NCBI GenBank assembly: GCA_965220085.1
Contig: CBDCOZ010000003.1
Location: 782,979 to 846,978, forward strand
Length of the DNA stretch: 64,000 nucleotides
Source: Candidatus Oxydemutatoraceae bacterium
GTDB lineage: Bacteria; Pseudomonadota; Gammaproteobacteria; Poriferisulfidales; Oxydemutatoraceae
Direction: 5' to 3'
The position numbers and the translations under genes were made by a program. Below, piece after piece: positions 2,535 to 53,098 of this stretch; position 1 is the stretch's first letter, and each line of letters begins with the position of its first letter. Below the pieces are notes generated by a model that was given only the letters and a program-made list of their open reading frames with translations, was not told where the DNA came from and searched no databases.

Positions 2535-3407
2535 ATGGACGGTTTGCTGCTGGTTAACAAACCCTCCGGCATCAGTTCCGGCAAAGCGGTGGGCCGGGTG
2601 ATACGCCGTTTGGGCAAGGTCAAGGGCGGTCACAGCGGCACGCTTGACCCGCTTGCCGAAGGTTTGTTAGTCATCGGCTTGGGGTGCGCGACAAGAGCCT
2701 TGGGCCACCTTGCGGCGAAGCCCAAATGTTATCGCGCGACCGCTCGCTTGGGCGTGTCTACCGCCACCGGAGACCTGGAAGGCGCAATCGTGGCGCGGCG
2801 CGATTTTCACATGCCCGATCGGGAATGTTTGGCGTCTTTGTTCGCGGCATTGCAAGGCGAGATGTTGCAAACCGTGCCCGCCTATTCCGCGCTCAAGCAA
2901 GACGGCAAGCGGTTTTATGAGTTGGCGCGCGATGCGCAAGAGACGCCGCACCGGCAGCGGTGGGTGCGCATACATCGGCTGCAATTGCTCGCGGCGGAGA
3001 ACGACCGCATCTCGTTTGATGTCGAGTGCTCCAAGGGGACATATATACGCAGCCTTGCCGAGGACATCGGTCGCTACCTCAATACCGTCGCATGCCTTGC
3101 GCGGTTGCAACGCACCGCGATCGGCGCGTTCGCATTGGAGCAAGCATTGCCGCTTGATGCGATTGAGCAACGCTCGCAAGAGGAGATCGCCGCGGCTGTT
3201 CTGCCTGTGGATCAAGCCTTTTGCGATTTGCCGGCGGCGTATTTGGATGCGACATCGGCGGCTGCGTTTTGTCACGGTCAAACTGTCGCACCGGTCGGCG
3301 CGCCGACCGAGGAGCGGTGCCGAGTGTACGCCGCCGACAAACAGTTTGTGGGCGTTGCAAGCGCGAAGGACGGCCTGCTCAAACCGCTGAAGGTGCTCAA
3401 GCCCTGA
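2535..3407 (+). CDS. truB: tRNA pseudouridine(55) synthase
   Basis: LLVNKPSGISS...HSGTLDPLAEGLLVIGLG catalytic Asp motif; synteny. Confidence 0.9.
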   Translation: MDGLLLVNKPSGISSGKAVGRVIRRLGKVKGGHSGTLDPLAEGLLVIGLGCATRALGHLAAKPKCYRATARLGVSTATGDLEGAIVARRDFHMPDRECLASLFAALQGEMLQTVPAYSALKQDGKRFYELARDAQETPHRQRWVRIHRLQLLAAENDRISFDVECSKGTYIRSLAEDIGRYLNTVACLARLQRTAIGAFALEQALPLDAIEQRSQEEIAAAVLPVDQAFCDLPAAYLDATSAAAFCHGQTVAPVGAPTEERCRVYAADKQFVGVASAKDGLLKPLKVLKP

Positions 3408-3459
3408 TAGCCGCTGTGCGCCGGCAAACCGGACGGCGATAGTGCGAGCAGGTTACGAT

Positions 3460-3720
3460 GCCGTCCGCGCTTTGCGACATGGAAAGACCGTGCGCACGGG
3501 CTCCGATAGGCATCCGGGCTTTGCGACATGGCAAGACCGTGCGAGCGGGCTCCGATAGGCGGCGATAGGCGAGGGTGCCCGGGCTTTGGAACAACCGGAT
3601 TTCGCTAGGGCGATGCCGGCAACTGTTGCAAAATAGCGACACCGTATTTTCGGGCGAGCGGGTTGCGATAGGCGACGAAGGTCGTTGGGGCTTTGCGACA
3701 TGGCAAGAAGCGGGCGGCGA
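3460..3720. repeat. degenerate tandem repeats (~47 bp unit GGGCTTTGCGACATGGCAAGACCGTGCGAGCGGGCTCCGATAGGC, 2 full and 2 partial copies) where rpsO would normally sit
   Basis: direct reading: copies at about 3467, 3514, 3574 (partial) and 3688; units contain the GCGATAGGCG motif that resembles the family gene terminus. Confidence 0.6.
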
Positions 3721-3902
3721 TGCTGTCCTTCTGTGCCGCCATGCCCCCTAATCCGCGCGATAGCGCAAATCTCCGGCGGCGGAGCAGGGGAGTGTTATGG
3801 GGGCCGGCATAGCACACTGCAAGCCCTGTCTTGGCAAGGGTTTCAGGGCAACGCATCCCGCGCATTGCCATAGATACCGTGCAAGCGCCAATGACATATG
3901 AC

Positions 3903-3932
3903 ATTGCCCCACGTGTGCGATATGTCATGGCA
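3903..3932. promoter_or_regulatory. conserved ~30 bp element CATTGCCCCACGTGTGCGATATGTCATGGC with flanking ATGACATAT/ATATGTCAT inverted repeat; second copy at 54727-54757
   Basis: 27/31 identity between the two copies, each just upstream of a sigma70-like promoter. Confidence 0.45.
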
Positions 3933-3944
3933 TCATACATACGC

Positions 3945-3973
3945 TTGCACATGACACGAATTTGTGATATAGT
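3945..3973 (+). promoter_or_regulatory. sigma70-type promoter TTGCAC-17-TATAGT of family gene A
   Basis: same architecture, TTGCAA-16-TATAGT, found at 14973-15000 and 51114-51141 upstream of the paralogous loci. Confidence 0.6.
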
Positions 3974-4172: not shown

Positions 4173-5760
4173 ATGAATTACAAATACTTTGGTATAACTA
4201 CCCCCCCCCCCCCCCCCCCCGCGTTGTCAGGGCAGGATAACCCGGCATAGCCTCTGGCCGCTCACTCTGCTGGCCCTGTTTGCGCTCTGCGCTCAGGCGC
4301 AAGCGCAGAACGCCACTGGCATGCCGGAGGTCACTTACGTCAGCGGCATAACCGTTCCCACTGAGGACTCCGCCATCACCGCATCTCAGGGCACCATAGC
4401 CGACCCGGACAATACGCCCACCACCACGGTCGGCGCCCTCAGCTGGCAGTGGAGCATGGCCGACACCAATGGCGGCACCTACACCGCCATCGCCATGGCG
4501 ACCAATGCCGCATTCACTCCGGGCGATGATGAGGTGGGCAAGTTTCTGCAGGTCTGCGCATCGTTCATGGATATGGCCACCACCCCCAATTCGGAGATGC
4601 GATGCCTGCAGATAGCCACCGCTGTGGCCAATGTCAATGACAAGCCGGTATCCATAAACACCAATCTTGTAGTAAATATAAACGCCGATGCCGACAGCCC
4701 TCATCCGCTTCGGGCATCCGACTTCCCGTTCACCGATGCCGACAAAGATATGCTGGCTGGTGTCATCATACATAGCCTGCCCAGCCACGGTACCATGAGT
4801 CTGGATGGCACAGCCCTGACCAGCGACGATGTTCCCACAGCAACCATAACCGTGGCCAAACTGGACGCTGGTGCCCTGACCTATTACCCGACACCAGCCC
4901 AGCGAATGCCGAGCTTCGCAGCAGTCTCCTTCTTCCAGGCCAGGGTGGTGGATGATGGCAGCGATGGCACCGACAACAAGACCAGCATTGGTGCCAACAT
5001 CCTTATCGTTCTGACATCGCCGGACCAGACTGCCGCCAGTGGTGCCCCCACCATAATCCCGTCCACCACCGCCGACAACCCGACCCACGCCGAGGATGCC
5101 CAGTTGACCGCCAGCAGCGATGGCATCACCGAGCCCAATGGCATAGACCGCACCACCCTGAGGTGGCAATGGCAGTCATCCCCCGCCAGCGATGGCGCTT
5201 TTGCAGCCATAAACGGCGCGACCGGGGTGCTATTCACCCCCCTGCAGGCGCATGTGGGCCAATACATCCGGGTCTGCGTCAGTTTCATGGATTTCCACGC
5301 CATGCCGGAGACTGTGGAGGGCCTGTGTTCCGCCGCCGCCCGGGTGCGCAACGTAAACGATGCGCCCCGGGCGCAAAACCGTACGATAAATGTGTCGGTG
5401 GATGCCACGATGAGCGAGCCTTTCAGGTTCGCCGTCGACGACTTTCCCTTTGCCGATGAGGACGATGACAACTTAGTCAACGTGGAGATTGCCAGCCTGC
5501 CGGGTGCCGGCACCCTGCAAATAAACGGCGCTGACGCCACTGTCGGCGATATCATAGAAGCCGATGACATAGACGACTTGGCGTACTATCCCGCCAGCCA
5601 GAATGCCCAGGCCGGCTACGCCGCCTTCACCTTCAAGGTAACCGACGATGGCAGCGATGGCAGCGGCAACAAAACTTCCGGCGCCGCCACAATCACCATC
5701 AATCTCACGGAGCACTTGCGCCTGCGCTTGCGCCTCTTTCTGGAAGGCCCGTTGCGATAG
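4173..5760 (+). CDS. secreted cadherin-like repeat protein, family member A; poly-C frameshift currently out of frame (ON would need 21 C); ends HLRLRLRLFLEGPLR
   Basis: signal peptide LWPLTLLALFALCAQAQA; two SWQWQ-type ~90 aa repeats; cadherin-like motifs NVNDKPV / NVNDAPRA / DDGSDGTDNKTS; paralogous to the genes at 15291-19725, 51346 and 53099. The track ORF 4321-5760 is the in-frame downstream part. Confidence 0.7.
4201..4220 (+). repeat. homopolymeric poly-C tract (20 C) between the ATG-led mini-ORF and the signal peptide of gene A
   Basis: RBS AGGAGAG, ATG 4173, 9 codons, then C20; signal-peptide frame (open from 4198) is +1 relative to the ATG with 20 C. Confidence 0.85.
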
Positions 5761-8710: not shown

Positions 8711-10021
8711 ATGTCCGCTCTTACGCTTCGCTCACAACCGGTCGCCGCTTTGGCGGGCGAGGCGCGGGCGCCCGGGGACAAGTCTATTTCGCATCGCGCT
8801 TTGATGCTTGCGGCGATCGCCCGGGGCGACAGCGAGATTACCGGCTTCCTTCACAGCGACGATTGCCAGGCGACTGCCGATGCATTGCGTATGTTAGGGG
8901 TCTCCATTGAATATGACGGGCGCGATCGTGTGCTCGTGCGCGGCGGCGGGCGGCGGGCGTTTGCCGCCGCCGATGCCGAGATTGACCTCGGCAATTCCGG
9001 CACGTCGATGCGTTTATTGAGCGGCTTGCTCGTCGCGCAACCTTTTGCGAGCGCGCTGACCGGGGACAGGTCTTTGAATACGCGTCCGATGCAACGGATT
9101 ACAGACCCCTTGCGGATGATGGGAGCGGATATTCAAGCGACGCCCGACGGCACGCCGCCTCTGGTGATCAAACCGTGCGCGGGCTTGCAAGGCATTTCTT
9201 ACGCGTTGCCGATGTCCAGCGCGCAGGTGAAATCCTGCCTTTTGCTGGCCGGATTGTATGCCCGCGGGCGGACTACGGTGACCGAGCCCGCGCCAAGCCG
9301 CGATCATACCGAGCGGATGCTCCGAGCGTTTTCATATCCGCTGACCTGCGATCAAGGCGGTATCAGCCTAGAAGGCGGCGGCGAGCTGAGGGCGACCCGG
9401 GTGGATGTGCCGGGCGATATTTCATCGGCGATGTTTTTTATCGTCGCAGCCTGTATCATAAAGGGTTCTAAGTTGACGGTTCGCGATGTCGGGGTCAATC
9501 CGACCCGCATCGGAGCGATAGATATTTTACGGAGCATGGGAGCGATGATAGAAATAAAACATATGCGCGAAGCAAACGGAGAGCCGCTTGCCGACATTGC
9601 GGTGGAGTCGCGTGATCTGCGCGGCGCGGAGATTGCGCCCGAACAAGTGCCGGCAGCGATCGATGAGTTCCCGATATTGTTTGTCGCCGCCGCTTGCGCG
9701 AAGGGCAAGACCTGTTTGCGCGGCGCGAAGGAGTTGCGGGTGAAAGAGAGCGATCGCATCGGCACGATGGCGGACGGGTTGCGGCGGTGCGGGGTGCGCG
9801 CCGAGACCTTTGACGAGGGCATCGTGATCGAAGGCGGGGGGCTGAGCGGCGGCGCGGTCGATGCGGCGGATGATCATCGCGTTGCGATGGCGTTCTCTGT
9901 CGCCGGCGCTGTCGCGGCGGCGCCCGTTACGATTAAAAACTGCGCCGGTATCGCGAGTTCCTTCCCGGGCTTTGCCGAATGCGCCAACGCTATCGGCATG
10001 CATATCAGCGAGGAGACGTGA
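8711..10021 (+). CDS. aroA: 3-phosphoshikimate 1-carboxyvinyltransferase (EPSP synthase)
   Basis: LAGEARAPGDKSISHRALMLAA...LGNSGTSMRLL motifs; ATG at 8711. Confidence 0.9.
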   Translation: MSALTLRSQPVAALAGEARAPGDKSISHRALMLAAIARGDSEITGFLHSDDCQATADALRMLGVSIEYDGRDRVLVRGGGRRAFAAADAEIDLGNSGTSMRLLSGLLVAQPFASALTGDRSLNTRPMQRITDPLRMMGADIQATPDGTPPLVIKPCAGLQGISYALPMSSAQVKSCLLLAGLYARGRTTVTEPAPSRDHTERMLRAFSYPLTCDQGGISLEGGGELRATRVDVPGDISSAMFFIVAACIIKGSKLTVRDVGVNPTRIGAIDILRSMGAMIEIKHMREANGEPLADIAVESRDLRGAEIAPEQVPAAIDEFPILFVAAACAKGKTCLRGAKELRVKESDRIGTMADGLRRCGVRAETFDEGIVIEGGGLSGGAVDAADDHRVAMAFSVAGAVAAAPVTIKNCAGIASSFPGFAECANAIGMHISEET

Positions 10022-10698
10022 TGGCGGCGGAAGTAATTGCGGTGGATGGCCCGGCGGGTTCCGGCAAGAGCACGATCGCTTCCGGACTCGCGCTTACTTT
10101 GAGTTTTCATCTGCTTGTCAGCGGCGCGCTATACCGCATCATAGGCGAGGCTTTTCGGAGAAAGTCTATCGATGTGCGCGACAGCGAGGCGATAACCAAT
10201 CTGGTATCCGCGATCGATATGCAGTGCATACCGATGAAAGGCAAGACGCGCATTATCTATAATGGCACCGATGTGACGAATGAGATCAGCAAAGAATCGT
10301 ATGCCGCCGACGCCTCGTATGTGGGCACTATTCCCAAGGTGCGCGAGGCGATATTGAATCTGCAGCGTTGTTATCGCGCAACACCGGGTCTTGTCGCCGA
10401 AGGACGGGATATGGGAAATGTGGTATTTCCCGAAGCCAAACTCAAGATATTTTTGACTGCCAGCATTGAGGTTCGCGCCGAACGGAGGCTCCGGCAGTTG
10501 AATAAATTGGGGGTAAATGCTAATCTTAGCGACCTTGCCCAAGGCATATCGCAACGAGATGAGCAGGATGCGGGACGCGCTATTGCTCCCCTCAAATTGA
10601 TGCCCGATGCCGCATTGGTGGACACGAGCGATTTGACAGCGAAGGAAACGGTGGAGACTTTGATCGGCATGGCAAGAGAACGCGGAATTTGTCCGTAG
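10021..10698 (+). CDS. cmk: cytidylate kinase
   Basis: P-loop IAVDGPAGSGKST; aroA-cmk-rpsA-ihfB synteny. Confidence 0.9.
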   Translation: MAAEVIAVDGPAGSGKSTIASGLALTLSFHLLVSGALYRIIGEAFRRKSIDVRDSEAITNLVSAIDMQCIPMKGKTRIIYNGTDVTNEISKESYAADASYVGTIPKVREAILNLQRCYRATPGLVAEGRDMGNVVFPEAKLKIFLTASIEVRAERRLRQLNKLGVNANLSDLAQGISQRDEQDAGRAIAPLKLMPDAALVDTSDLTAKETVETLIGMARERGICP

Positions 10699-14499: not shown

Positions 14500-14567
14500 T
14501 AAGTTGCAACAAAACAGGCAAAGAGAACTCATCTCGCTAAGGTTGATTCTTTTTGGTTGTCTCCTCT

Positions 14568-14768
14568 GGCGGCGCCGAACTTTGGCGCCGCCCTTTTTAA
14601 GCGTCTCCGGCGGCGCCGAACTTTGGCGCCGTCTTTTGGGTTGTCTCTTCTGGTGGCACCGAACTCCGGTGCCGCCTTTTTTGGTTGTCCCCTCCGATGG
14701 CACCCGAACTCCGGTGCCGCCCTTTTTAAGCGTCTCTGGTGGCACCGAACTCCGGTGCTACCTTTTTA
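14568..14768 (+). terminator. array of five tandem REP-like GC-rich hairpins, each followed by a T-run, giving multiple intrinsic terminators
   Basis: GGCGGCGCC-GAACTTT-GGCGCCGCC+CTTTTT at 14568-14597, then four more (two subtypes, GGCGGCGCC and GGTGGCACC stems) near 14608, 14652, 14696 and 14738. Confidence 0.7.
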
Positions 14769-15000: not shown

Positions 15001-15290
15001 GCGACACTAAGCGTTATATGTACGCAAACAACTCAAGAAGTCACAAATAAAAATATCATTTGTGCCTCATTAAAAGTTGTTTGTGTACATTAAACAATCC
15101 ACAAACAATGGAGTTGTTTGTGTACATATAACGTATAATTGAATTTTCTAAACATAGGAGATACAAACATTTGCAGATGACTTGCATTTTGTGGCAGGGC
15201 ACACAGCAGTAAACAATCACAAACAACGGAGTTGTTTGTGTGCATATGCCGCACAACTGTATTCGCTAGAAACAGGAAATACGAACCATT

Positions 15291-16183
15291 ATGAATAATT
15301 ACATGAATATAAATATATCTAATACCCCCCCCCCCCCCCCCCCCCCCCCCCGCATTGGCGGACAGCACTAACTCGGCTTAGTCTCCGGTCACTTATCCTG
15401 CCGGCCCTGTCTCTGGCATTGGGCGCAACCCATGTTTGGGCCCAGACGAGCAAGAGTGTTAATGCCCCTGTTGGCGGCGGCACATATTATTTCACCGCCG
15501 CAGATTTCGGATTCTCCTCAGGTGTCATCGTGTTTGAGTCGTTGCCCGCTCGTGGCAACTTCCAGCGATACAGTAACGGAAATCCCGCGGCTATCATTCC
15601 AGGGATTATCGACGACCACCAAGCCACCCATTTCTTTGCCGACGCCTTTGGCGGTGCCGGCTCCGACGACAGGTTGGAGTACAGGACTCCTGCCGATGCT
15701 GTTTCCATCGCCACTGGCTATACCAGCTTTATCTACCAACATTCTGCTGACGGTGGTATCACCCGCACCATGTTCACCATGACCATCAACCTGGCGGGGG
15801 CATCCACGCCGACGGCCGCCAGCGGTGCGCCCACAATTGCCGCCACAGACACGCACCGGATTAGAGCTTCCATCACCGGTGTGACGGACCGCAACGGCAT
15901 TGATGTCGGCACCCTGAGTTGGCAGTGGCAACAGGCCGCCGCACCTGCCAGCGGTGTTCCTGAAACCGATGACTATGACGACATAGAGGATGCTACTTCC
16001 TCCCTCTTCGCACCGACTGCCGCCCAACTGAGCAGGTATGTGCGCACCTGCGTTTCTTTCAAGGATCAGTCTCCCACGCCCGCATCGGAAGGGCCGCTGT
16101 GTAGCGCCGGCCTTCGGGTGACAGAGTTGCCGTCTGAGATACGCTTGCGGTTGCGCCTCTTCCTGGAGGGCCCCCTGCGATGA
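15291..16183 (+). CDS. family member C1 (first gene of the five-gene array); poly-C currently out of frame
   Basis: track ORF 15419-16183 plus the upstream frame open from 15323; ends ELPSEIRLRLRLFLEGPLR. Confidence 0.7.
15325..15351 (+). repeat. poly-C tract (27 C) between the mini-ORF (ATG 15291) and the signal peptide of array gene 1
   Basis: the ATG frame hits a stop at 15369 with 27 C; 26 or 29 C would fuse it to PHWRTALTRLSLRSLILPAL. Confidence 0.85.
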
Positions 16184-17064
16184 TGCGAGTACTCCGCCCC
16201 TTCCCGCATTGGCGGACAGCACTAACTCGGCTTAGTCTCCGGTCACTTATCCTGCCGGCGCTGTGTCTGGCATTGGGCGCAACTTATGTTTGGGCCCAGG
16301 CGACAGATCAGAGCATTGATGTCCCGATAGGCGGCAACGCCTATACCATCACGGCTGCCGACTTTGGCTTTGATGATATCACTGCCGGAAGCGCCCTTAC
16401 GATCATGACGGTCGGGTCTTTGCCTGCTCTCGGCAACTTACAGCGATACACAGGTGGGAATCCTGCGAATCTGCGTTTGGCTTCTGACCCAAATGCAAGT
16501 ACTTTCTTTGAAACAGGTCTTGGCGGTCTTGACGGCGCCGGCTCCGACGACAGGTTGGATTATACGCCTCCTGCCGATGCTGTTTCCGTTGCCGCCGGCT
16601 ATGCCAGCTTTGCCTTTCATATTTCCACCGATGCTATTACCGATACGATGGCCACCATGACCATCAACCTGGTGGGGGCATCCACGCCGACGACCGCCAC
16701 CGGTGCGCCCACAATCTTCGCCACGGACACGCACCAAATCAGAGCTTCCATCACCGGTGTGACGGACCTCAACGGCATTGATGTCGGCACCCTGAGTTGG
16801 CAGTGGCAACAGGCCGATGCCCCCGTCAGTGGCGTTCCCGAAACCGGTGATTACATCGACATAAAGGATGCTACTTCTTCCTCCCTCTTCGCACCGACTG
16901 CCGCCCAACTGAGCAGGTATGTGCGCACCTGCGTTTCTTTCAAGGATCAGTCTCCCACGCCCGCATCGGAAGGGCCGCTGTGTAGCATCGGCATTCTGGT
17001 GACAGAGTTGCCGTCTGAGATACGCCTGCGGTTGCGCCTCTTCCTGGAGGGCCCCCTGCGATGA
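16180..17064 (+). CDS. family member C2 (own signal peptide MMRVLRPFPHWRTALTRLSLRSLILPALCLALGATYVWAQA)
   Basis: ATGA start/stop overlap with C1; GGAGGG in the conserved terminal codons acts as its SD; conserved C-terminal half. Confidence 0.8.
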   Translation: MMRVLRPFPHWRTALTRLSLRSLILPALCLALGATYVWAQATDQSIDVPIGGNAYTITAADFGFDDITAGSALTIMTVGSLPALGNLQRYTGGNPANLRLASDPNASTFFETGLGGLDGAGSDDRLDYTPPADAVSVAAGYASFAFHISTDAITDTMATMTINLVGASTPTTATGAPTIFATDTHQIRASITGVTDLNGIDVGTLSWQWQQADAPVSGVPETGDYIDIKDATSSSLFAPTAAQLSRYVRTCVSFKDQSPTPASEGPLCSIGILVTELPSEIRLRLRLFLEGPLR

Positions 17065-17960
17065 TGCGAGTATTCTGCCCCTTCCCGCATTGGTGGGCGA
17101 TACTAACTCGGCTTAGTCTCCGGTCACTTATCCTGCCGGCGCTGTGTCTGGCATTGGGCGCAACTTATGTTTGGGCCCAGGCGACAGATCAGAGCATTGA
17201 TGTCCCGATAGGCGGCAGCGCCTATACAATCACGGCTGCCGACTTTGGCTTTGATGATATTATCAATACTGGAGCCTCCGATACGATTATGACGGTCGGG
17301 TCTTTGCCTGCTCTCGGCAACTTACGGCGATACACCCGTGGGCGGGTTGTAACTTTACGTGTGGGGAGCCTGACAGATGGCGACACGAGTGTAAGTGCTT
17401 TCTTTGAGACAGGCTTTAACGGTCTTGATGGCGCCGGCTCCGACAACAGGTTGGATTATACGCCTCCTGCCGATGCCGTTTCCGTTGCCGCCGGCTATGC
17501 CAGCTTTGCCTTTTATATTTCCACTGATGGCAGTACCGATACGATGGCCACCATGACCATCAACCTGGTGGGAGCATCCATGCCGACGACCGCCACCGGC
17601 GCGCCCGAAATCGCCGCCACAGACACGCACCGAATCAGAGCTTCCATCACCGGTGTGACGGACCTCAACGGCATTGATGTCGGCACCCTGAGTTGGCAGT
17701 GGCAACAGGCCGATGCGCCCGTCAGCGGTGTTCCCGACACCGGTGATTACATCGACATAAAGGATGCTACTTCTTCCTCCCTCTTCGCACCGACTGCCGC
17801 CCAACTGAGCAGGTATGTGCGCGCCTGCGTTTCTTTCAAGGATCAGTCTCCCACGCCCGCATCGGAAGGGCCGCTGTGTAGCATCGGCATTCTGGTGACA
17901 GAGTTGCCGTCTGAGATACGCCTGCGGTTGCGCCTCTTCCTGGAGGGCCCCCTGCGATGA
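17061..17960 (+). CDS. family member C3
   Basis: same as C2; variable N-terminal half, near-identical C-terminal half. Confidence 0.8.
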   Translation: MMRVFCPFPHWWAILTRLSLRSLILPALCLALGATYVWAQATDQSIDVPIGGSAYTITAADFGFDDIINTGASDTIMTVGSLPALGNLRRYTRGRVVTLRVGSLTDGDTSVSAFFETGFNGLDGAGSDNRLDYTPPADAVSVAAGYASFAFYISTDGSTDTMATMTINLVGASMPTTATGAPEIAATDTHRIRASITGVTDLNGIDVGTLSWQWQQADAPVSGVPDTGDYIDIKDATSSSLFAPTAAQLSRYVRACVSFKDQSPTPASEGPLCSIGILVTELPSEIRLRLRLFLEGPLR

Positions 17961-18838
17961 TGCGAGTATTCCGCCCCTTCCCGCATTGGTGGGCGATACT
18001 AACCCGGCTTAGTCTCCGGTCACTTATTCTGCCGGCGCTGTGTCTGGCATTGGGCGTAACCTGGGCGCAGGCTCAAACTGCCCAGGACCGCAGTGTTGAT
18101 ATCCCCATAGACAGCGATGGTCATCCGTTGCGACTTGCCGATTTCGGGCCTACCTCATCTGCCTCAGGTATAGTTATAATCAAGATCAAGTCGCTACCCG
18201 CTCGTGGCAGCTTACAGCGATACAGTAGTGGAATTCCTGTGCTGCTCGTTGTTGGGGATTTTATCCACGGCAACACAAGCTTTTTCACTTTCTCAACCCT
18301 TGGCGGTGCCGACGCCGATGACAGGTTGGAGTACAGGCCTCCCGCCAATGCTGGTTCCCCCGCCACTGGCTACGACAGCTTTGTCTTCCATTATTCTGTT
18401 GACAGTGGTTTCACGGCCACCACGGCCACCATGACCATCAACCTGGTGGGGGCATCCATGCCGACGACCGCCACCGGCGCACCCACAATCGCCGCCACAG
18501 ACACGCACCGAATCAGAGCTTCCATCACCGGTGTGACGGACCTCAACGGCATTGATGTCGGCACCCTGAGTTGGCAGTGGCAACAGGCCGATGCCCCCGT
18601 CAGCGGTGTTCCCGACACCGGTGATTACATCGACATAAAGGATGCTACTTCTTCCTCCCTCTTCGCACCGACTGCCGCCCAACTGAGCAGGTATGTGCGC
18701 GCCTGCGTTTCTTTCAAGGATCAGTCTCCCACGCCCGCATCGGAAGGGCCGCTGTGTAGCATCGGCATTCTGGTGACAGAGTTGCCGTCTGAGATACGCC
18801 TGCGGTTGCGCCTCTTCCTGGAGGGCCCCCTGCGATGA
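17957..18838 (+). CDS. family member C4
   Basis: same as C2. Confidence 0.8.
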   Translation: MMRVFRPFPHWWAILTRLSLRSLILPALCLALGVTWAQAQTAQDRSVDIPIDSDGHPLRLADFGPTSSASGIVIIKIKSLPARGSLQRYSSGIPVLLVVGDFIHGNTSFFTFSTLGGADADDRLEYRPPANAGSPATGYDSFVFHYSVDSGFTATTATMTINLVGASMPTTATGAPTIAATDTHRIRASITGVTDLNGIDVGTLSWQWQQADAPVSGVPDTGDYIDIKDATSSSLFAPTAAQLSRYVRACVSFKDQSPTPASEGPLCSIGILVTELPSEIRLRLRLFLEGPLR

Positions 18839-35469: not shown

Positions 35470-36330
35470 CTATTTCATACCGAAGAAAAAAGCAAAAGGG
35501 TCGGATATTTCATGAATATATATTAATCCGATAATACTCGCAAAGGCCAGATATGGGCCAAATGCGATTTCCTCCTTAAGCGCGCGTCGTCGCAGAACGA
35601 CGAGGGCGAGGCTGGCAAAAATCCCGCTGACAGAAGCGATTAGAATCACGCCGGGCAATGCCTCCCAGCCCAGCCAAGCGCCGATGGCCGATAGCAATTT
35701 GAGGTCTCCTTGGCCCAAGCCGTGCTTGCCGGATAGCAGTCTAAATGATTGTTTTATAAAGAGAAATATGACATAGCCTGCGATGGCGCCGAAAACCGCG
35801 CTGGTGATGTCGGCGAACAGGCCGAAGCTGTTGCAAACCAGTCCGGCCCACAGCAGGGTCAGTGTCAGTTCGTCGGGCAGGATTTTCTCACGCTGATCGA
35901 TACAAGCCAGCGCCAGCAAAAATGTCGCCGCGATGACAGCGGCAAGAAAATGCCATGTCGCCCCGTAGACATGGAACATGGTCAGCCATAACGCAAGCGT
36001 GGCCGCCTCAATCAGAAAATACGATTTGATGGGCGCGCGGCAATACGCGCAGCGCCCTTTGAGAAAGACGCAACTGATCAGCGGAATGTTGTGTCGCCAC
36101 TTGAGTTTCTTTTTGCACTCGGGGCAATGCGAAGCGGGCAGGCAGAGCGATAGCCCGGAGTCGGCGTCGGCGTGAGGCGCTTCGGCCAGAAACTCTTTGC
36201 ACTCCGCGCGCCACTTGCGCTCAAGAATTTTGGGAAGGCGGCAGATGACAACGGTCAGAAAACTGCCTATGCATGCGGCTATCGCAACGATCGCAATAAG
36301 CGACAACCAGTGGTTGGCAAAAATATCCAA
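35470..36330 (-). CDS. pilD: prepilin peptidase / N-methyltransferase
   Basis: CPECKKKL...C..C zinc-binding tetrad and 8-TM A24 peptidase architecture. Confidence 0.9.
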   Translation of the reverse strand: MDIFANHWLSLIAIVAIAACIGSFLTVVICRLPKILERKWRAECKEFLAEAPHADADSGLSLCLPASHCPECKKKLKWRHNIPLISCVFLKGRCAYCRAPIKSYFLIEAATLALWLTMFHVYGATWHFLAAVIAATFLLALACIDQREKILPDELTLTLLWAGLVCNSFGLFADITSAVFGAIAGYVIFLFIKQSFRLLSGKHGLGQGDLKLLSAIGAWLGWEALPGVILIASVSGIFASLALVVLRRRALKEEIAFGPYLAFASIIGLIYIHEISDPFAFFFGMK

Positions 36331-36363
36331 ACTTATCGTTCCAAGTATCTATATCAGTGCGGA

Positions 36364-37539
36364 TTATAGAACAGTTCCCAGATTAAATATCGGCAGATAC
36401 ATAGAAGCCACGATCCAGCCGATAACAACGGCGGTTACCAGAATCAGAGCGGGCTCTGCCAGTTGGATGAGTTTGCCCGCATAATCCTCAATTTGATTGT
36501 TGTAATACTCCGTAATCTGTCGCAGGGCGCTCTCAAATTTGCCGCTGCTTTCGCCGACACTGATCATTTGCTCAAAGAACTTGCCGAATATTGCGGCGCT
36601 TTTGACGGATTCGTATAAGCTGCCGCCCCGCATCAGGTGTTCTTTGAGCCGGATGATTCTCTCAATGAATACCAGATTGGACGAGGTTTGCGGCAACCAC
36701 GCCAGCGTCTGATCGATCGGAGTGCCCGCTTGGTAAGAGACTTTGACCAACATGGCAAACAGATATTGCAGGCGGGCTTTGTTCAATTTTCCGATCACCG
36801 GAAGCTCCAGCATCAGCCACGAGACGATGTAGCGCACAGAGCGTATCTGTCTGTAGAGCACGATCAGCGCTCCGAGCGACAGGGCGATGGAAGAGAACAC
36901 AAGCGCGCCGTGTCGGATGATAAAGTCCGATGCTTGAATCGTAATTTGAGTGTACGGCGGAAGGTTCTCCGCGCCTTGATACAAGGCGGCGAATTGCGGC
37001 ACCACGCTGGTAAGCAGCAACACGCTGACACCCAGCGCGGTGCACAGCACGGTCAGCGGGTATATCGACGCCTTTTTCATTTTTGAAGCCACTTTTCGTT
37101 GCCGCTCTCTGTAGTCCGACAAGGCTTCCAGCAAAGGCACGATCTGTCCGCTGCTCTCGCCGACTTGCATGATGCGCGCGATAAATTGATTGCGCGGCTC
37201 CAGATGCGGTTCCAGACTTTGCGCGAGCGACTCGCCGCTTTCTATCCTGTTCCACACCTGTCGGAGTATGTGATGCAGTTCGCGCGGCGCTTGGCGGCGC
37301 AACAGGTTAAACACATCGGCCAAAGGCAGGTTGGCCCCGAGCAATGTCGCAAGTTGCATCAGCAGAAAGTCTATGTCTGCGGATTTCAGGACCTGCTTTG
37401 ACCATACTCGCTTTGCTTTGAGCAAGATGATATCGCGCAAAGCGAGGTTCGTCTCCAACGCCTTTTTGTTGCGCGCAGTCTCCTCGCCGGAGACAGGTTC
37501 TCCGCTGACAGTCAGCCCTTTCCACTGAAAGAGTTTCAA
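36364..37539 (-). CDS. pilC: type IV pilus assembly platform protein PilC (GspF family)
   Basis: duplicated GspF domains, 391 aa. Confidence 0.85.
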   Translation of the reverse strand: MKLFQWKGLTVSGEPVSGEETARNKKALETNLALRDIILLKAKRVWSKQVLKSADIDFLLMQLATLLGANLPLADVFNLLRRQAPRELHHILRQVWNRIESGESLAQSLEPHLEPRNQFIARIMQVGESSGQIVPLLEALSDYRERQRKVASKMKKASIYPLTVLCTALGVSVLLLTSVVPQFAALYQGAENLPPYTQITIQASDFIIRHGALVFSSIALSLGALIVLYRQIRSVRYIVSWLMLELPVIGKLNKARLQYLFAMLVKVSYQAGTPIDQTLAWLPQTSSNLVFIERIIRLKEHLMRGGSLYESVKSAAIFGKFFEQMISVGESSGKFESALRQITEYYNNQIEDYAGKLIQLAEPALILVTAVVIGWIVASMYLPIFNLGTVL

Positions 37540-37749
37540 TGCAAGCGACCGGGCGGCGCAGTGTTCCCGCTGCCGATACGGCTCCGGTGTGTGATGGCGG
37601 CGGTAGTTACCGCCGCCATCACTGCCGCCGTCACTGGGTCGTGCCGGAGGTCGCCGTCACAGTCGGTGGTGTTAGCCACCGCCGCCACTATTGCTACCGC
37701 CATCGATTGAGGTTTCTTCTGAGCTAATCGCGCGACGCTTAATCTAAGG

Positions 37750-38235
37750 TCATGACTCGCTACCATCGGCTGGGGTTTCTTCTGAGCGACAGTTGGCCGG
37801 CAGGTACTCACCGCCTATATTATCTGTTTCACCGTCTTCGGTGGTGGTGCAGTTCCATGTCAGCGTGCCATTACTCACTTCCGCTTCCAAAATGAGCACT
37901 GTGTTATTAAGGTCGGTGCTGACTTGGTCGCTCAAAGTCATCTTCAATTGTCCTACACCACCGTCTTCTGCCGTACCATAGCTTACACCTTGGATGTACT
38001 CGGTCGAAAAATTAGTGGTGTTAATCCCGGCTGCAGCCGCATCGGCCGGAATCTTTCCGGTGTTCAGATAAGATTCCGCAATCAAAGTTTTGAACGAACT
38101 GGCGACGGTCAATGCCTCGGCAATCTTCGCCCGTATTGTATAATTTTGATACGCGGGCACCGCCAGCGATAAAAGAATTCCGACGATAGCAATTGCAATC
38201 ATCAGTTCAATCAAGGTAAATCCATTTTTTCGCAT
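37750..38235 (-). CDS. pilA: type IVa major pilin
   Basis: class III leader MRKNG/FTLIELMIAIAIVGIL with Glu+5; C-terminal disulfide loop C..C. Confidence 0.9.
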   Translation of the reverse strand: MRKNGFTLIELMIAIAIVGILLSLAVPAYQNYTIRAKIAEALTVASSFKTLIAESYLNTGKIPADAAAAGINTTNFSTEYIQGVSYGTAEDGGVGQLKMTLSDQVSTDLNNTVLILEAEVSNGTLTWNCTTTEDGETDNIGGEYLPANCRSEETPADGSES

Positions 38236-50984: not shown

Positions 50985-51030
50985 CGCCGCCCGCCGCCCC
51001 TGCGTCTGCGCCTTTTCCTTCAAGATCCTT
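50985..51030 (+). pseudogene. orphan remnant of a family-gene 3' end (..RRRPPPLRLRLFLQDP..)
   Basis: degenerate copy of the LRLRLRLFLEGPLR terminus, followed by a leader homologous to 3745-4172. Confidence 0.55.
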
Positions 51031-51113
51031 GCAATAATGCGGGTATCCTGCGGCAGAGAAAGGGAGTATTATGGGGCGCAAACAAGGGGAGCGAGGCAGG
51101 ATACGGAGGCGCT

Positions 51114-51345: not shown

Positions 51346-52612
51346 ATGAATAGACAAGACTTTAATACTACCCCCCCCCCCCCCCCCCCCCCGCGCTATG
51401 TAAAGGTAAGGGGACTGCGGTCGCTTGGCTGTATTGCCTCGCCACCCGCTTTCTGCAAGTACTTCGCCCCTCCGCATTGGCGGGCAACGATGATGCGGCT
51501 TAGCCTCTGGTCGCTGGCCCTGTTCGTCCTGTTCGCCGTCTGCGCTCAGGCGCAGGCGCAAAATGCCACCGGCATACCCGATGTCACCTACGCCAGCGGC
51601 ATAATCGCTCCCACCGAAGATTCCGCCATCACCGCCAACGGCGGCAGCGGTTCCACCGCCATAGCCGACACCGATGGCCTGGGCACTTTCAGTTGGCAAT
51701 GGAGTGCGGCCGATACCAACGGCGGCGCCTACGCCGACATCGCCATGGCGACCAATGCCGCCTTTACTCCGGGCGATGACGAGGTGGGCAAGTTCCTGCG
51801 CGTCTGCGCATCTTTCACGGATAACGCCGGCAACAACGAGGAGCGTTGCCTGCGGATAGCCACCGCCGTGGCCAACATCAACGACAAGCCGGTGCCTATC
51901 GCCAACACAATTTCGGTGAGCACCGCCGCCGATGCCGACAATCCCTATGTCTTCTCTGCGGATGACTTTCCATTCACGGATGTGGACGGCGACATGCTGG
52001 CGGGCATCGAAATAGCCGCCCTGCCAGGAAGAGATTCTACAGCCGGGCCAGGCAGTCCGGGCACCCTGGCATTGAACGGAACGGCCTTGACCGCTGTCCC
52101 CGCAAGCACCATCACCGTAGCCCAACTGGAGGCCGGCGCTCTGACCTATTACCCGCCAGAGGGCGAGCAACCCACCAACCCCAATGACCCCATTGCCAGA
52201 TTAGCCTTCTTCGGCTTTGATGTGGTGGACGATGGCAGTGATGGCAACACCAACAATGTCAGCAATGTGGGCAGAATCATAGACATACGACTGGTGTCGG
52301 TGAGTCAGACTGCCGCCAGCGGCAGACCCAGAATAGCAGTGCTGAATGTTCCCGCCAATATCCACACCCACGCTGAGGGCACCCAACTGAGAGCCGACAC
52401 CGGAGACATCGTCGAACCCAACGGCATAGACCGCAGCACTCTGGAGTGGCAATGGCAGTCATTCTCTGTCGGCGATGGTGTCTTTGCCGACATAAGCGGC
52501 GCCACCGGAGGCGCATTCACCCCGGGCCAGGCCCATGTGGGCATGCGCATCCGCGTCTGCGCCAGTTTTATGGACAATCACGCTATGCCGGAGACTGTGG
52601 AAGACCTGTGCT
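51346..52612 (+). pseudogene. family member B; family homology stops at ~52612, and the frame then runs on into unrelated sequence
   Basis: identical to gene A up to ...HAMPETVE(G/D)LCSA; after that the track ORF 51346-53094 becomes R/H/P/Q-rich nonsense, while the +1 frame encodes an OMP-like C-terminus. Confidence 0.5.
51371..51392 (+). repeat. poly-C tract (22 C), here in frame: MNRQDFNTT-P7-...-MMRLSLWSLALFVLFAVCAQAQA
   Basis: ATG 51346 with RBS AAGGAG; the open frame continues through the tract. Confidence 0.85.
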
Positions 52613-53056
52613 CCGCCTCTATCCGGCAACAGCAGCACCCTGGCGGCCGCCGATGCCTCCATCAACGAGATATCCATAGATGCCCAACTGCGCTATACCA
52701 AAGACAATCTGATGCCCTTTGCCAGCATAACCGCCCGCAAACTTGGTGGCGACCTCAGCCAATCCTTGGCGATGGATCTCAGATTCGGCGCAGACCTGCA
52801 GACCAAACCCGCCACCATCCGCCTGTCCATAATCCGCCAGATAAACGACACCACCCACAAACGCGACAGCCTGAGTCTGGACATAGCCACCAGGCCCAAC
52901 CGCAGCGGCATAACCGCCAGCCTCGGCAGCCGCTACGACAGCATAACGGGCCGCCCACAGTGGCACAGCCGCCTGGGCTGGCAATACCGAAACTTCCAGA
53001 GCTCCCTGCAGGCATCGCCAGACGACTGGCGACTGCAAGCCCGGGTGCGCTGGTAA
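52535..53056 (+). CDS. C-terminal fragment of an outer-membrane beta-barrel protein (beta-signal ...DWRLQARVRW), +1 out of frame with gene B
   Basis: alternating hydrophobic pattern with a terminal aromatic; no start or signal peptide of its own. Confidence 0.45.
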   Translation: MWACASASAPVLWTITLCRRLWKTCAPPLSGNSSTLAAADASINEISIDAQLRYTKDNLMPFASITARKLGGDLSQSLAMDLRFGADLQTKPATIRLSIIRQINDTTHKRDSLSLDIATRPNRSGITASLGSRYDSITGRPQWHSRLGWQYRNFQSSLQASPDDWRLQARVRW

Positions 53057-53098
53057 TCCGGGCGCAAGCCCACTCATCCATCAACCATACATAGGAGT

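Follow-up and report, generated by a model that had tools for sequence, protein, structure and literature searches.

Tail-bearing genes in the window

The DNA considered here is a 64,000-nucleotide (nt) stretch, the window, from Candidatus Oxydemutatoraceae bacterium (contig CBDCOZ010000003.1, positions 782,979 to 846,978 of the forward strand), and all window coordinates below are counted from its first nucleotide. Seven of its open reading frames (ORFs) terminate in the peptide [I/L]RLRLRLFLEGPLR-stop, the stop codon being TAG or TGA. This ending, which we call the tail, is a previously undescribed, strictly C-terminal motif that is constrained at the level of the peptide. The seven genes occupy three clearly divergent loci, namely gene A (ending at 5760), a five-gene array (B1 to B5) and gene C (ending at 54457), and are laid out as follows.

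4173..5760, + strand: gene A; leader ATG at 4173, poly-C, signal peptide (…LFALCAQAQAQ), two immunoglobulin (Ig)-like and two cadherin-like domains, tail
5716..5760, + strand: tail of gene A, LRLRLRLFLEGPLR plus TAG
15291..16183, + strand: array gene B1; leader ATG at 15291, signal peptide, two beta-sandwich domains, tail at 16139-16183
16180..17064, + strand: array gene B2 (294 amino acids, aa); its ATG and the stop of B1 overlap (ATGA), tail at 17020-17064
17061..17960, + strand: array gene B3 (299 aa, identical to P0001); tail at 17916-17960
17957..18838, + strand: array gene B4 (293 aa); tail at 18794-18838
18835..19725, + strand: array gene B5 (296 aa); tail at 19681-19725, stop TAG
53099..54457, + strand: gene C (452 aa; identical to P0028 from the second Met); signal peptide, cadherin-like, Ig-like and cadherin-like domains in that order, tail at 54413-54457

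The gene A span of 4173-5760 measures 1588 nt. Its main ORF, listed from 4321, is in another frame than the ATG at 4173. Within the array every stop codon overlaps the following start codon (ATGA).

Six-frame motif searches and a degenerate DNA pattern find R-L-R-x-F-L-E-G-P-L-R-stop exactly seven times, always on the + strand (copies ending at 5760, 16183, 17064, 17960, 18838, 19725 and 54457), and the DNA pattern occurs in none of 100 dinucleotide-preserving shuffles of the window. An initial annotation of this DNA had already reported that seven paralogs share an ending, and these counts bear it out. That annotation gave the motif as 14-15 residues beginning (H/E)(L/I); the tail is real, whereas the conserved unit is 14 residues long, [I/L]-R-L-R-L-R-L-F-L-E-G-P-L-R, and its first position is hydrophobic rather than H or E. 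The tail has a net charge of +3, and its longest uncharged run is LFL. By direct reading of the sequence, its first nine residues are perfectly amphipathic as a beta-strand, whose two faces are I/L/L/L/L and R/R/R/F, and are not amphipathic as a helix.

Selection on the tail

When the last 13 codons (39 nt, about 12 synonymous sites) are compared among gene A, the array and gene C, each pair differs at 5-8 nt and 100% of the differences are synonymous. If the same number of changes is placed at random, the peptide is left unaltered in just 2e-3 to 5e-5 of trials per pair. Proteins A and C are 40% identical overall and 100% identical over their final 15 residues, and the reading frames of the opposite strand show no conservation. 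The silent differences, together with the divergence of A and C elsewhere, indicate that the peptide-level constraint proposed in the initial annotation is real: the tail is under strong purifying selection as a peptide.

These data also bear on the idea that the conserved entity is the nucleic acid, with the peptide incidental, and that the 3′ end acts as a homology block for cassette recombination or tandem duplication, or as an RNA structure, or gives the following array gene its Shine-Dalgarno sequence. The sequence CTGGAGGGC, which encodes L-E-G, does provide the array with a GGAGG that precedes the following ATG by about 10 nt, where stop and start overlap. DNA conservation continues for about 12 nt beyond the tail stop, and the ATGATGCGAGTA found there is the start of the next gene in the array and persists, degraded, after the terminal genes A, B5 and C. 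A tandem repeat also begins at the last codons of one tail:

19718..19951, + strand: 56-nt tandem repeat, 4.2 copies, 99% identical; the unit opens with TGCGATAG, the last two tail codons of B5 plus the stop

An element of this kind is largely refuted by the 5-8 of about 12 synonymous sites that differ between loci with no amino acid change, and the frames of the opposite strand are not conserved. Moreover, the GGAGG is degraded in gene A (GGAAGG), the tail is equally constant in terminal genes that have no downstream gene, and the RNA folds are no more stable than those of shuffled sequences (z from +1.4 to +1.8) and have no Rfam match. We therefore consider a nucleic-acid role highly improbable. 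A Neisseria-type DNA uptake sequence by the tail (GCCGTCTGAG) was tried as a candidate and rejected, as no such uptake sequence (DUS or USS) is enriched in the window.

The initial annotation also mentioned an orphan LRLRLFLQDP near 51000. It exists, and it reads as follows.

50997..51070, + strand: decayed orphan tail (LRLRLFLQDP) and downstream flank, homologous to the gene C tail and flank

Its likeness to locus C extends past the former stop codon, so that the orphan is the decayed 3′ end of a lost paralog.

Family size, cargo and distribution

The tail is not confined to the window. A search of 5.8 billion proteins with B3 gave 37 homologs, all 37 of them ending in the tail; they lie on contigs of 2,046,636, 230,214 and 215,991 bp, and each sequence was seen once. 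A profile built from the last 32 residues gave 61 matches at E<=1e-3 among 1.84 billion cluster representatives, of which 60 are genuine (the other is a spurious low-complexity protein). In all 60 the motif ends at the last residue, one variant ending in PLQ. Altogether at least 84 tail-bearing proteins were retrieved, ranging from 35 to 6018 aa (median about 360 aa) and totalling 39,955 aa, or about 120 kb of coding sequence. Nearly all of the 84 are encoded on contigs of one assembly, and the family apparently derives from this single assembly, or from two or three at most.

Across these 84 proteins residue -14 can be I, L, V or M and residue -8 can be L, V or I, and F-L-E-G-P-L-R is constant save for one P-to-S and one R-to-Q change. 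What precedes the tail is far more varied: an SWQWQ-type Ig-like domain (…EGPLCS…) in 31 proteins, a bacterial cadherin-like domain (…TMTINL…) in 25, He_PIG in 10 and PPC in 2. Other contexts include eight genuine cadherin repeats, modules rich in Cys, and a subtilase (Peptidase_S8) that has Calx-beta repeats. A short, variable linker joins the tail to the domain before it. The tail is thus a modular tag found on at least five unrelated domain types. Signal-peptide-like N-termini are present in 57 of the 84 proteins, a count to be read with the fact that many gene calls are truncated at phase-variable leaders (see below).

Pfam and NCBIfam scans of the tail proteins returned no model that covers the tail and only weak cadherin and Ig matches. 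The scans gave no C-terminal signal model for these proteins, which agrees with the earlier statement that the tail matches no known C-terminal signal; the possibility by which the initial annotation would have stood refuted, that the tail merely closes a known domain family, came out negative. A literature search with the tail peptide string found no paper in the library searched. The exact degenerate tail DNA has no occurrence in 185,579 GTDB species genomes, JGI metagenomes or IMG/VR, from which the source genome is evidently absent, and a word-indexed search with a 45-aa tail alignment found three short remnants among 201 candidates. The dxs gene of the window is <=65% identical to that of any GTDB representative, the best being uncultured Gammaproteobacteria/Thiotrichales metagenome-assembled genomes; as judged from such matches, the source evidently belongs to a poorly sampled gammaproteobacterial lineage.

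Elsewhere in the same genome, outside the window, the ORFs P0049, P0061, P0084 and P0085 (35-149 aa) are short or chimeric and have kept the tail, and one short tail ORF consists of a LOG-like fragment, half a cadherin-like domain and the tail. These suggest frequent decay and rearrangement of family members.

Predicted structure of tail proteins

AlphaFold2 (AF2) models were made with family alignments for two proteins, B3 and P0032. The B3 model has two tandem beta-sandwich domains with a predicted local distance difference test score (pLDDT) mostly >90, and its Foldseek matches are generic Ig/cadherin tandems; its tail (residues 284-299) is unpacked at pLDDT 54-69. P0032 is modeled as an Ig-like domain, a cadherin-like domain and the tail with a mean pLDDT of 91.6, the tail (residues 244-259) being coil at pLDDT 64-76. 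Since the tail is unpacked in both models, it is probably not the last strand of any domain. The proposal in the initial annotation that the tail might complement a strand of the preceding domain finds no support in these two models (tail pLDDT 54-76).

The models are also relevant to the view that the tail is an assembly strand, a donor strand or amyloid-like zipper that would join family members head-to-tail or in sheets into a surface layer or fibre. Strands with alternating polar and non-polar residues are strongly beta-aggregating, and the tail has this pattern; the array genes are translationally coupled in tandem through their ATGA overlaps, and in the AF2 models the tail is free of its own domain, all of which would suit such a role. 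The same models, however, show complete beta-sandwiches from which no strand is missing, and the domains before the tail, a protease among them, fall into at least five unrelated types and offer no common acceptor groove. An assembly strand is accordingly a rather improbable explanation.

Poly-C tracts and probable phase variation

Genes A and B1, together with gene D (described in the next section), have homopolymeric C tracts of 20, 27 and 22 nt, respectively, between the leader start and the signal peptide.

4201..4220, + strand: C20 homopolymer, part of gene A's 5′ leader; the frame would be right with C19 or C22
15325-15351, + strand: C27 tract of B1
51371-51392, + strand: C22 tract of gene D

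The leader ORFs of these three genes start MNYKYFGIT…, MNNYMNINISN… and MNRQDFNT…. The initial annotation had called the seven tail paralogs intact. All seven do have the tail, whereas A is out of frame at its C20 and B1 at its C27, so that two of the three poly-C genes are out of frame as sequenced and D is in frame, with the proviso that the tract lengths may be wrong if the assembly was made from error-prone long reads (homopolymer error). Several homologs have poly-Pro at the position equivalent to the tract. Given the leader tracts and this poly-Pro in homologs, the tail genes are probably slipped-strand contingency genes, phase-variable by changes in tract length. A leader poly-C is what surface-exposed contingency genes would show, which fits with surface exposure of the tail proteins.

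Autotransporter ancestry of the family

Gene D, which lies between the orphan tail and gene C, links the tail family to autotransporters. It falls into two parts in different reading frames.

51346..52625, + strand: gene D, passenger part; leader, signal peptide, Ig-like and cadherin-like domains, to …ETVEDLCSAS
52626..53056, + strand: gene D, C-terminal part in the other reading frame; truncated barrel relic, …WRLQARVRW-stop, without tail

The gene D ORF runs from 51346 to 53094, and third-position GC content shows the true coding frame shifting near 52620. In the shifted frame the gene ends at 53056 after about 140 residues of strands with an alternating pattern, the last of which is …WRLQARVRW-stop. 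This C-terminal segment has three homologs in a large protein database, and one of them belongs to a 475-kb metagenome contig from ENA (locus L081, 65% GC), where it makes up the C-terminus of classical autotransporters. One L081 protein is 2659 aa long, and its last 400 residues match PF03797 with 45 bits (cut-off 26). The gene D segment is 65% identical to its final 142 residues. The match covers only these final 142 residues of the barrel, so gene D has only the C-terminal half of a barrel left; it is a relic of deletion or frameshift, from which the family's descent from autotransporters can be read. Neither this ancestry nor the poly-C tracts figured in the initial annotation, and both are new here.

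The relationship extends to the passengers. Gene A is 33-37% identical to L081 autotransporter passengers, that of the 2659-aa protein among them, over 377-492 residues (E 1e-58), and those passengers are built of the same modules as the tail proteins. The S8 subtilases show the same exchange, that of L081 having an outer-membrane-protein-like end (…RWDSRF) where that of the tail lineage bears the tail. No FLEGP- or RLRL-type motif occurs in any frame of L081, and no tail protein scanned matches PF03797. Since the cargoes in L081, the nearest relative available, are type Va autotransporters and those of the tail lineage have the tail, the tail sits in place of a cis barrel of about 290 residues, and as far as these comparisons go the 14-residue tail substitutes for that barrel in dozens of genes. 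Such a barrel-for-tail exchange is the “choice of anchor” pattern by which sorting signals were identified before.

The tail strand IRLRLRLFL is itself reminiscent of the last barrel strand in this group (YRLKARLHW / WRLQARVRW), with 4 of 9 residues identical and 7 of 9 in the same residue class; the sequence is too short and simple for this to count as evidence of homology, and we give it as a lead. The likeness, and the proof from gene D that barrel deletions happen, could be taken to mean that the tail is a functionless relic of recent common descent; it might, for instance, be the final strand left over from an autotransporter barrel that was deleted, still without time to diverge. The signature of selection contradicts this, as synonymous sites in the tail are near saturation at a nonsynonymous divergence (dN) of 0 while the flanking protein is at 35-40% identity, and EGPLR has no counterpart in barrels. 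A relic is scarcely credible.

Two C tracts in L081, at 4390-4399 (C10) and 18889-18899 (C11), lie just upstream of autotransporter genes. At 9574-10540 of the same contig an autotransporter barrel is split over two overlapping ORFs, which is probably a frameshift of low-coverage assembly (the contig name contains “8x”).

A proposed surface-sorting or anchoring role for the tail

The tail proteins are, by all these indications, a large, lineage-specific, Sec-exported, adhesin-like family, with at least one protease among them, that evidently descends from autotransporter passengers. Because the tail replaces a barrel in a probably phase-variable family of surface proteins, a role in sorting or anchoring is the best explanation for it, and this reading is strengthened by the autotransporter barrel on the same cargo in the relative and by the relic in gene D. 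We favor it tentatively: that the tail is a surface-sorting or anchoring tag, and that it works by the docking mechanism that follows, we hold with a confidence that stops a little short of even.

The tail would assume the job of the barrel, that of bringing the cargo to the outer membrane or cell surface or of holding it there. Its first nine residues would form an amphipathic beta-strand that matches a strand of a transmembrane barrel in length and pattern. Most likely this strand would dock by beta-augmentation on an outer-membrane beta-barrel partner, which may be the beta-barrel assembly machinery (BAM), the translocation and assembly module (TAM) or an orphan translocator, and the constant EGPLR end with its free carboxylate would serve as a specificity or recognition cap. 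A stronger version is possible though doubtful, namely a “split” type V-like pathway in which outer-membrane barrels, one or a few in number, act in trans for dozens of barrel-less passengers, the tail strand engaging or completing the barrel by beta-augmentation. In this version, of which we are just as doubtful, the loss of the cis barrel would have turned classical autotransporters into a many-to-one system of secretion and anchoring, and diderm bacteria would have a further class of C-terminal sorting signal, one that is new, short and without a helix.

Several points weigh against a sorting or anchoring tag that docks as a strand. AF2 weakly favors helix or coil for the tail, not strand. 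No orphan barrel, Omp85-type protein, ATP-binding cassette transporter/membrane fusion protein (ABC/MFP) set, sortase-like enzyme or intramembrane protease lies by the tail genes in the 64 kb. The family is apparently known from one genome, and the conservation figures hold within that genome. Finally, the tail differs from tripartite sorting domains in having no transmembrane helix and no terminal Arg cluster (it has a single terminal Arg), and from the BAM beta-signal in having no terminal aromatic residue (R, or Q in one member).

Two other roles at the cell envelope have to be weighed here. The tail might simply be a self-anchor, a cationic amphipathic strand that binds the phosphates of lipopolysaccharide or the outer leaflet directly and so keeps the cargo at the surface once a general pathway such as the type II secretion system (T2SS) has exported it, with no dedicated recognition machinery. 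The alternation of R and L in the tail and its net charge of +3 are as one would expect for this, the window contains a type IV pilus/T2SS-like gene set, and no dedicated machinery is found near any tail copy in the window, where the initial annotation had advised looking for a dedicated transporter or sortase-like gene. A physico-chemical anchor, however, would allow exchanges of K for R and among L, I and V as well as changes in length, whereas F-L-E-G-P-L-R is near-invariant in the 84 proteins, which argues for specific recognition rather than a plain membrane anchor; nor would it explain how the cargo crosses the outer membrane. We judge a self-anchor unlikely.

The tail might also be a tag for proteolysis or quality control, read by a periplasmic protease or PDZ protein that recognizes C-termini (of the Prc/Tsp or DegS/DegP type) and controls the abundance or release of the cargo. 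Exact placement at the free C-terminus is typical of PDZ-read signals, and the motif is placed in precisely this way in every member. A degron, on the other hand, leaves the position of the tail at the former barrel site unexplained, and its PLR end is unlike known tags; to our knowledge, Prc and ssrA-type tags end in small non-polar residues. Such a tag seems very unlikely.

If the tail is the sorting signal that we favor, it would amount to an unrecognised Gram-negative way of displaying many surface proteins without one barrel each, and to a minimal display tag of 14 residues. The tail marks a very large, probably phase-variable surface repertoire, which suggests strong pressure on the surface from hosts or predators.

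Genomic neighborhood and repeats

The tail genes of the window are all placed between housekeeping operons. Gene A lies between infB-rbfA-truB on one side and a low-molecular-weight phosphatase gene, hisC-tyrA-aroA-cmk-rpsA-ihfB-lapB and a comEA-like gene on the other; the array is followed by galU, dxs and ispA; and the orphan, D and C lie between tsaE and amiC on one side and a thioredoxin-like gene on the other. No transporter gene adjoins any tail copy. Window ORFs that lack a Pfam match look like antisense reading frames.

Repeats are found near several of these loci. Intergenic repeats, tandem or dispersed, are placed just upstream of two loci: 49 nt x 2 at 3464-3560 (within wider repeats at about 3278-3952) at locus A, and 41 nt x 5.1 at 14549-14767 at locus B. 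Paired hairpins CACAAACAACTCCGTTGTTTGTG are found at about 15100-15240. The region is unusually rich in repeats and has two more that are large, near-perfect and in tandem: one of 182 nt x 3.0 (55330-55874) covers the 3′ end of the thioredoxin-like gene, and another of 156 nt x 5.9 (58511-59434) follows a Kdo/WaaP-type kinase gene.

On the - strand at 55767-57433, a modification enzyme of the MbnB/TglH/ChrH family for ribosomally synthesized and post-translationally modified peptides (PF05114, 335 bits) adjoins a DUF2063 protein, a pair that suggests a peptide-modification cluster. Also on the - strand, 35470-38235 carries a type IV pilus set (a pilin with N-methylation motif, PilC/T2SSF and prepilin peptidase A24), after which come coaE and zapD.

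Comparison with known systems

Close parallels in genomic behavior are the tripartite sorting domains LPXTG/sortase, PEP-CTERM/exosortase, GlyGly-CTERM/rhombosortase and MYXO-CTERM/myxosortase. Like these, the tail stands at the extreme C-terminus, occurs dozens of times per genome with an invariant signature, and is found on signal-peptide proteins with diverse cargo. The criteria set out for such domains (Haft, bioRxiv 10.1101/2023.06.07.544157) include a hydrophobic segment after the signature motif that is long enough for a transmembrane alpha-helix, 2-5 basic residues clustered at the very end, and a co-occurring cognate enzyme (sortase, exosortase, rhombosortase or myxosortase). No such enzyme is encoded in the 64-kb window. 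The tail also differs in length, at 14 against about 25-35 residues, and has no NCBIfam sorting-domain match.

With classical (type Va, T5aSS) autotransporters the tail proteins share a Sec signal peptide and Ig-like/cadherin-like passenger modules homologous to the L081 passengers, as well as homopolymeric C tracts upstream of the genes, as in the L081 autotransporters. They lack the C-terminal 12-stranded PF03797 barrel, so that self-translocation would be impossible. The tail resembles the BAM beta-signal in being a C-terminal amphipathic strand with alternating hydrophobic residues, similar to the last strand of this lineage's autotransporter barrels; it differs in that E-G-P-L-R follows the strand and in that it is not part of a barrel.

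Poly-G in PilC and the repeats of Opa make these Neisseria proteins examples of phase-variable surface families with homopolymer or repeat tracts in the leader. The tail family is similar in having tracts between start codon and signal peptide, ON and OFF paralogs, and a large number of paralogs. The Neisseria-type families, in contrast, are anchored as barrels or are pilus-associated, and we know of none that has this tail. Substrates of type I secretion (T1SS/RTX), which lack an N-terminal signal peptide and have an unprocessed signal at the C-terminus, as a rule with GGxGxD repeats, are different again, as the tail proteins have predicted cleavable Sec-type signal peptides and no RTX repeat matches.

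The C-terminal domain (CTD) of type IX secretion (T9SS) substrates offers a functional analogy, being likewise a C-terminal tag, present many times per genome, on Sec-exported multi-domain surface proteins and proteases, with the role in outer-membrane transit or anchoring that is proposed here for the tail. The CTD, however, is a folded beta-sandwich of about 70-100 residues confined to Bacteroidota and relatives, whereas the tail has 14 residues and is unstructured in AF2; the tail proteins have no NCBIfam or Pfam match to it (Por_Secre_tail) and no sequence similarity. The tail thus has the genomic hallmarks of a sorting tag and the architecture of none of the known ones, and on this comparison it behaves as a putative sorting tag outside every described family. 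Short C-terminal sorting tags have led to new machines before, as with sortase, exosortase, rhombosortase, myxosortase and T9SS.

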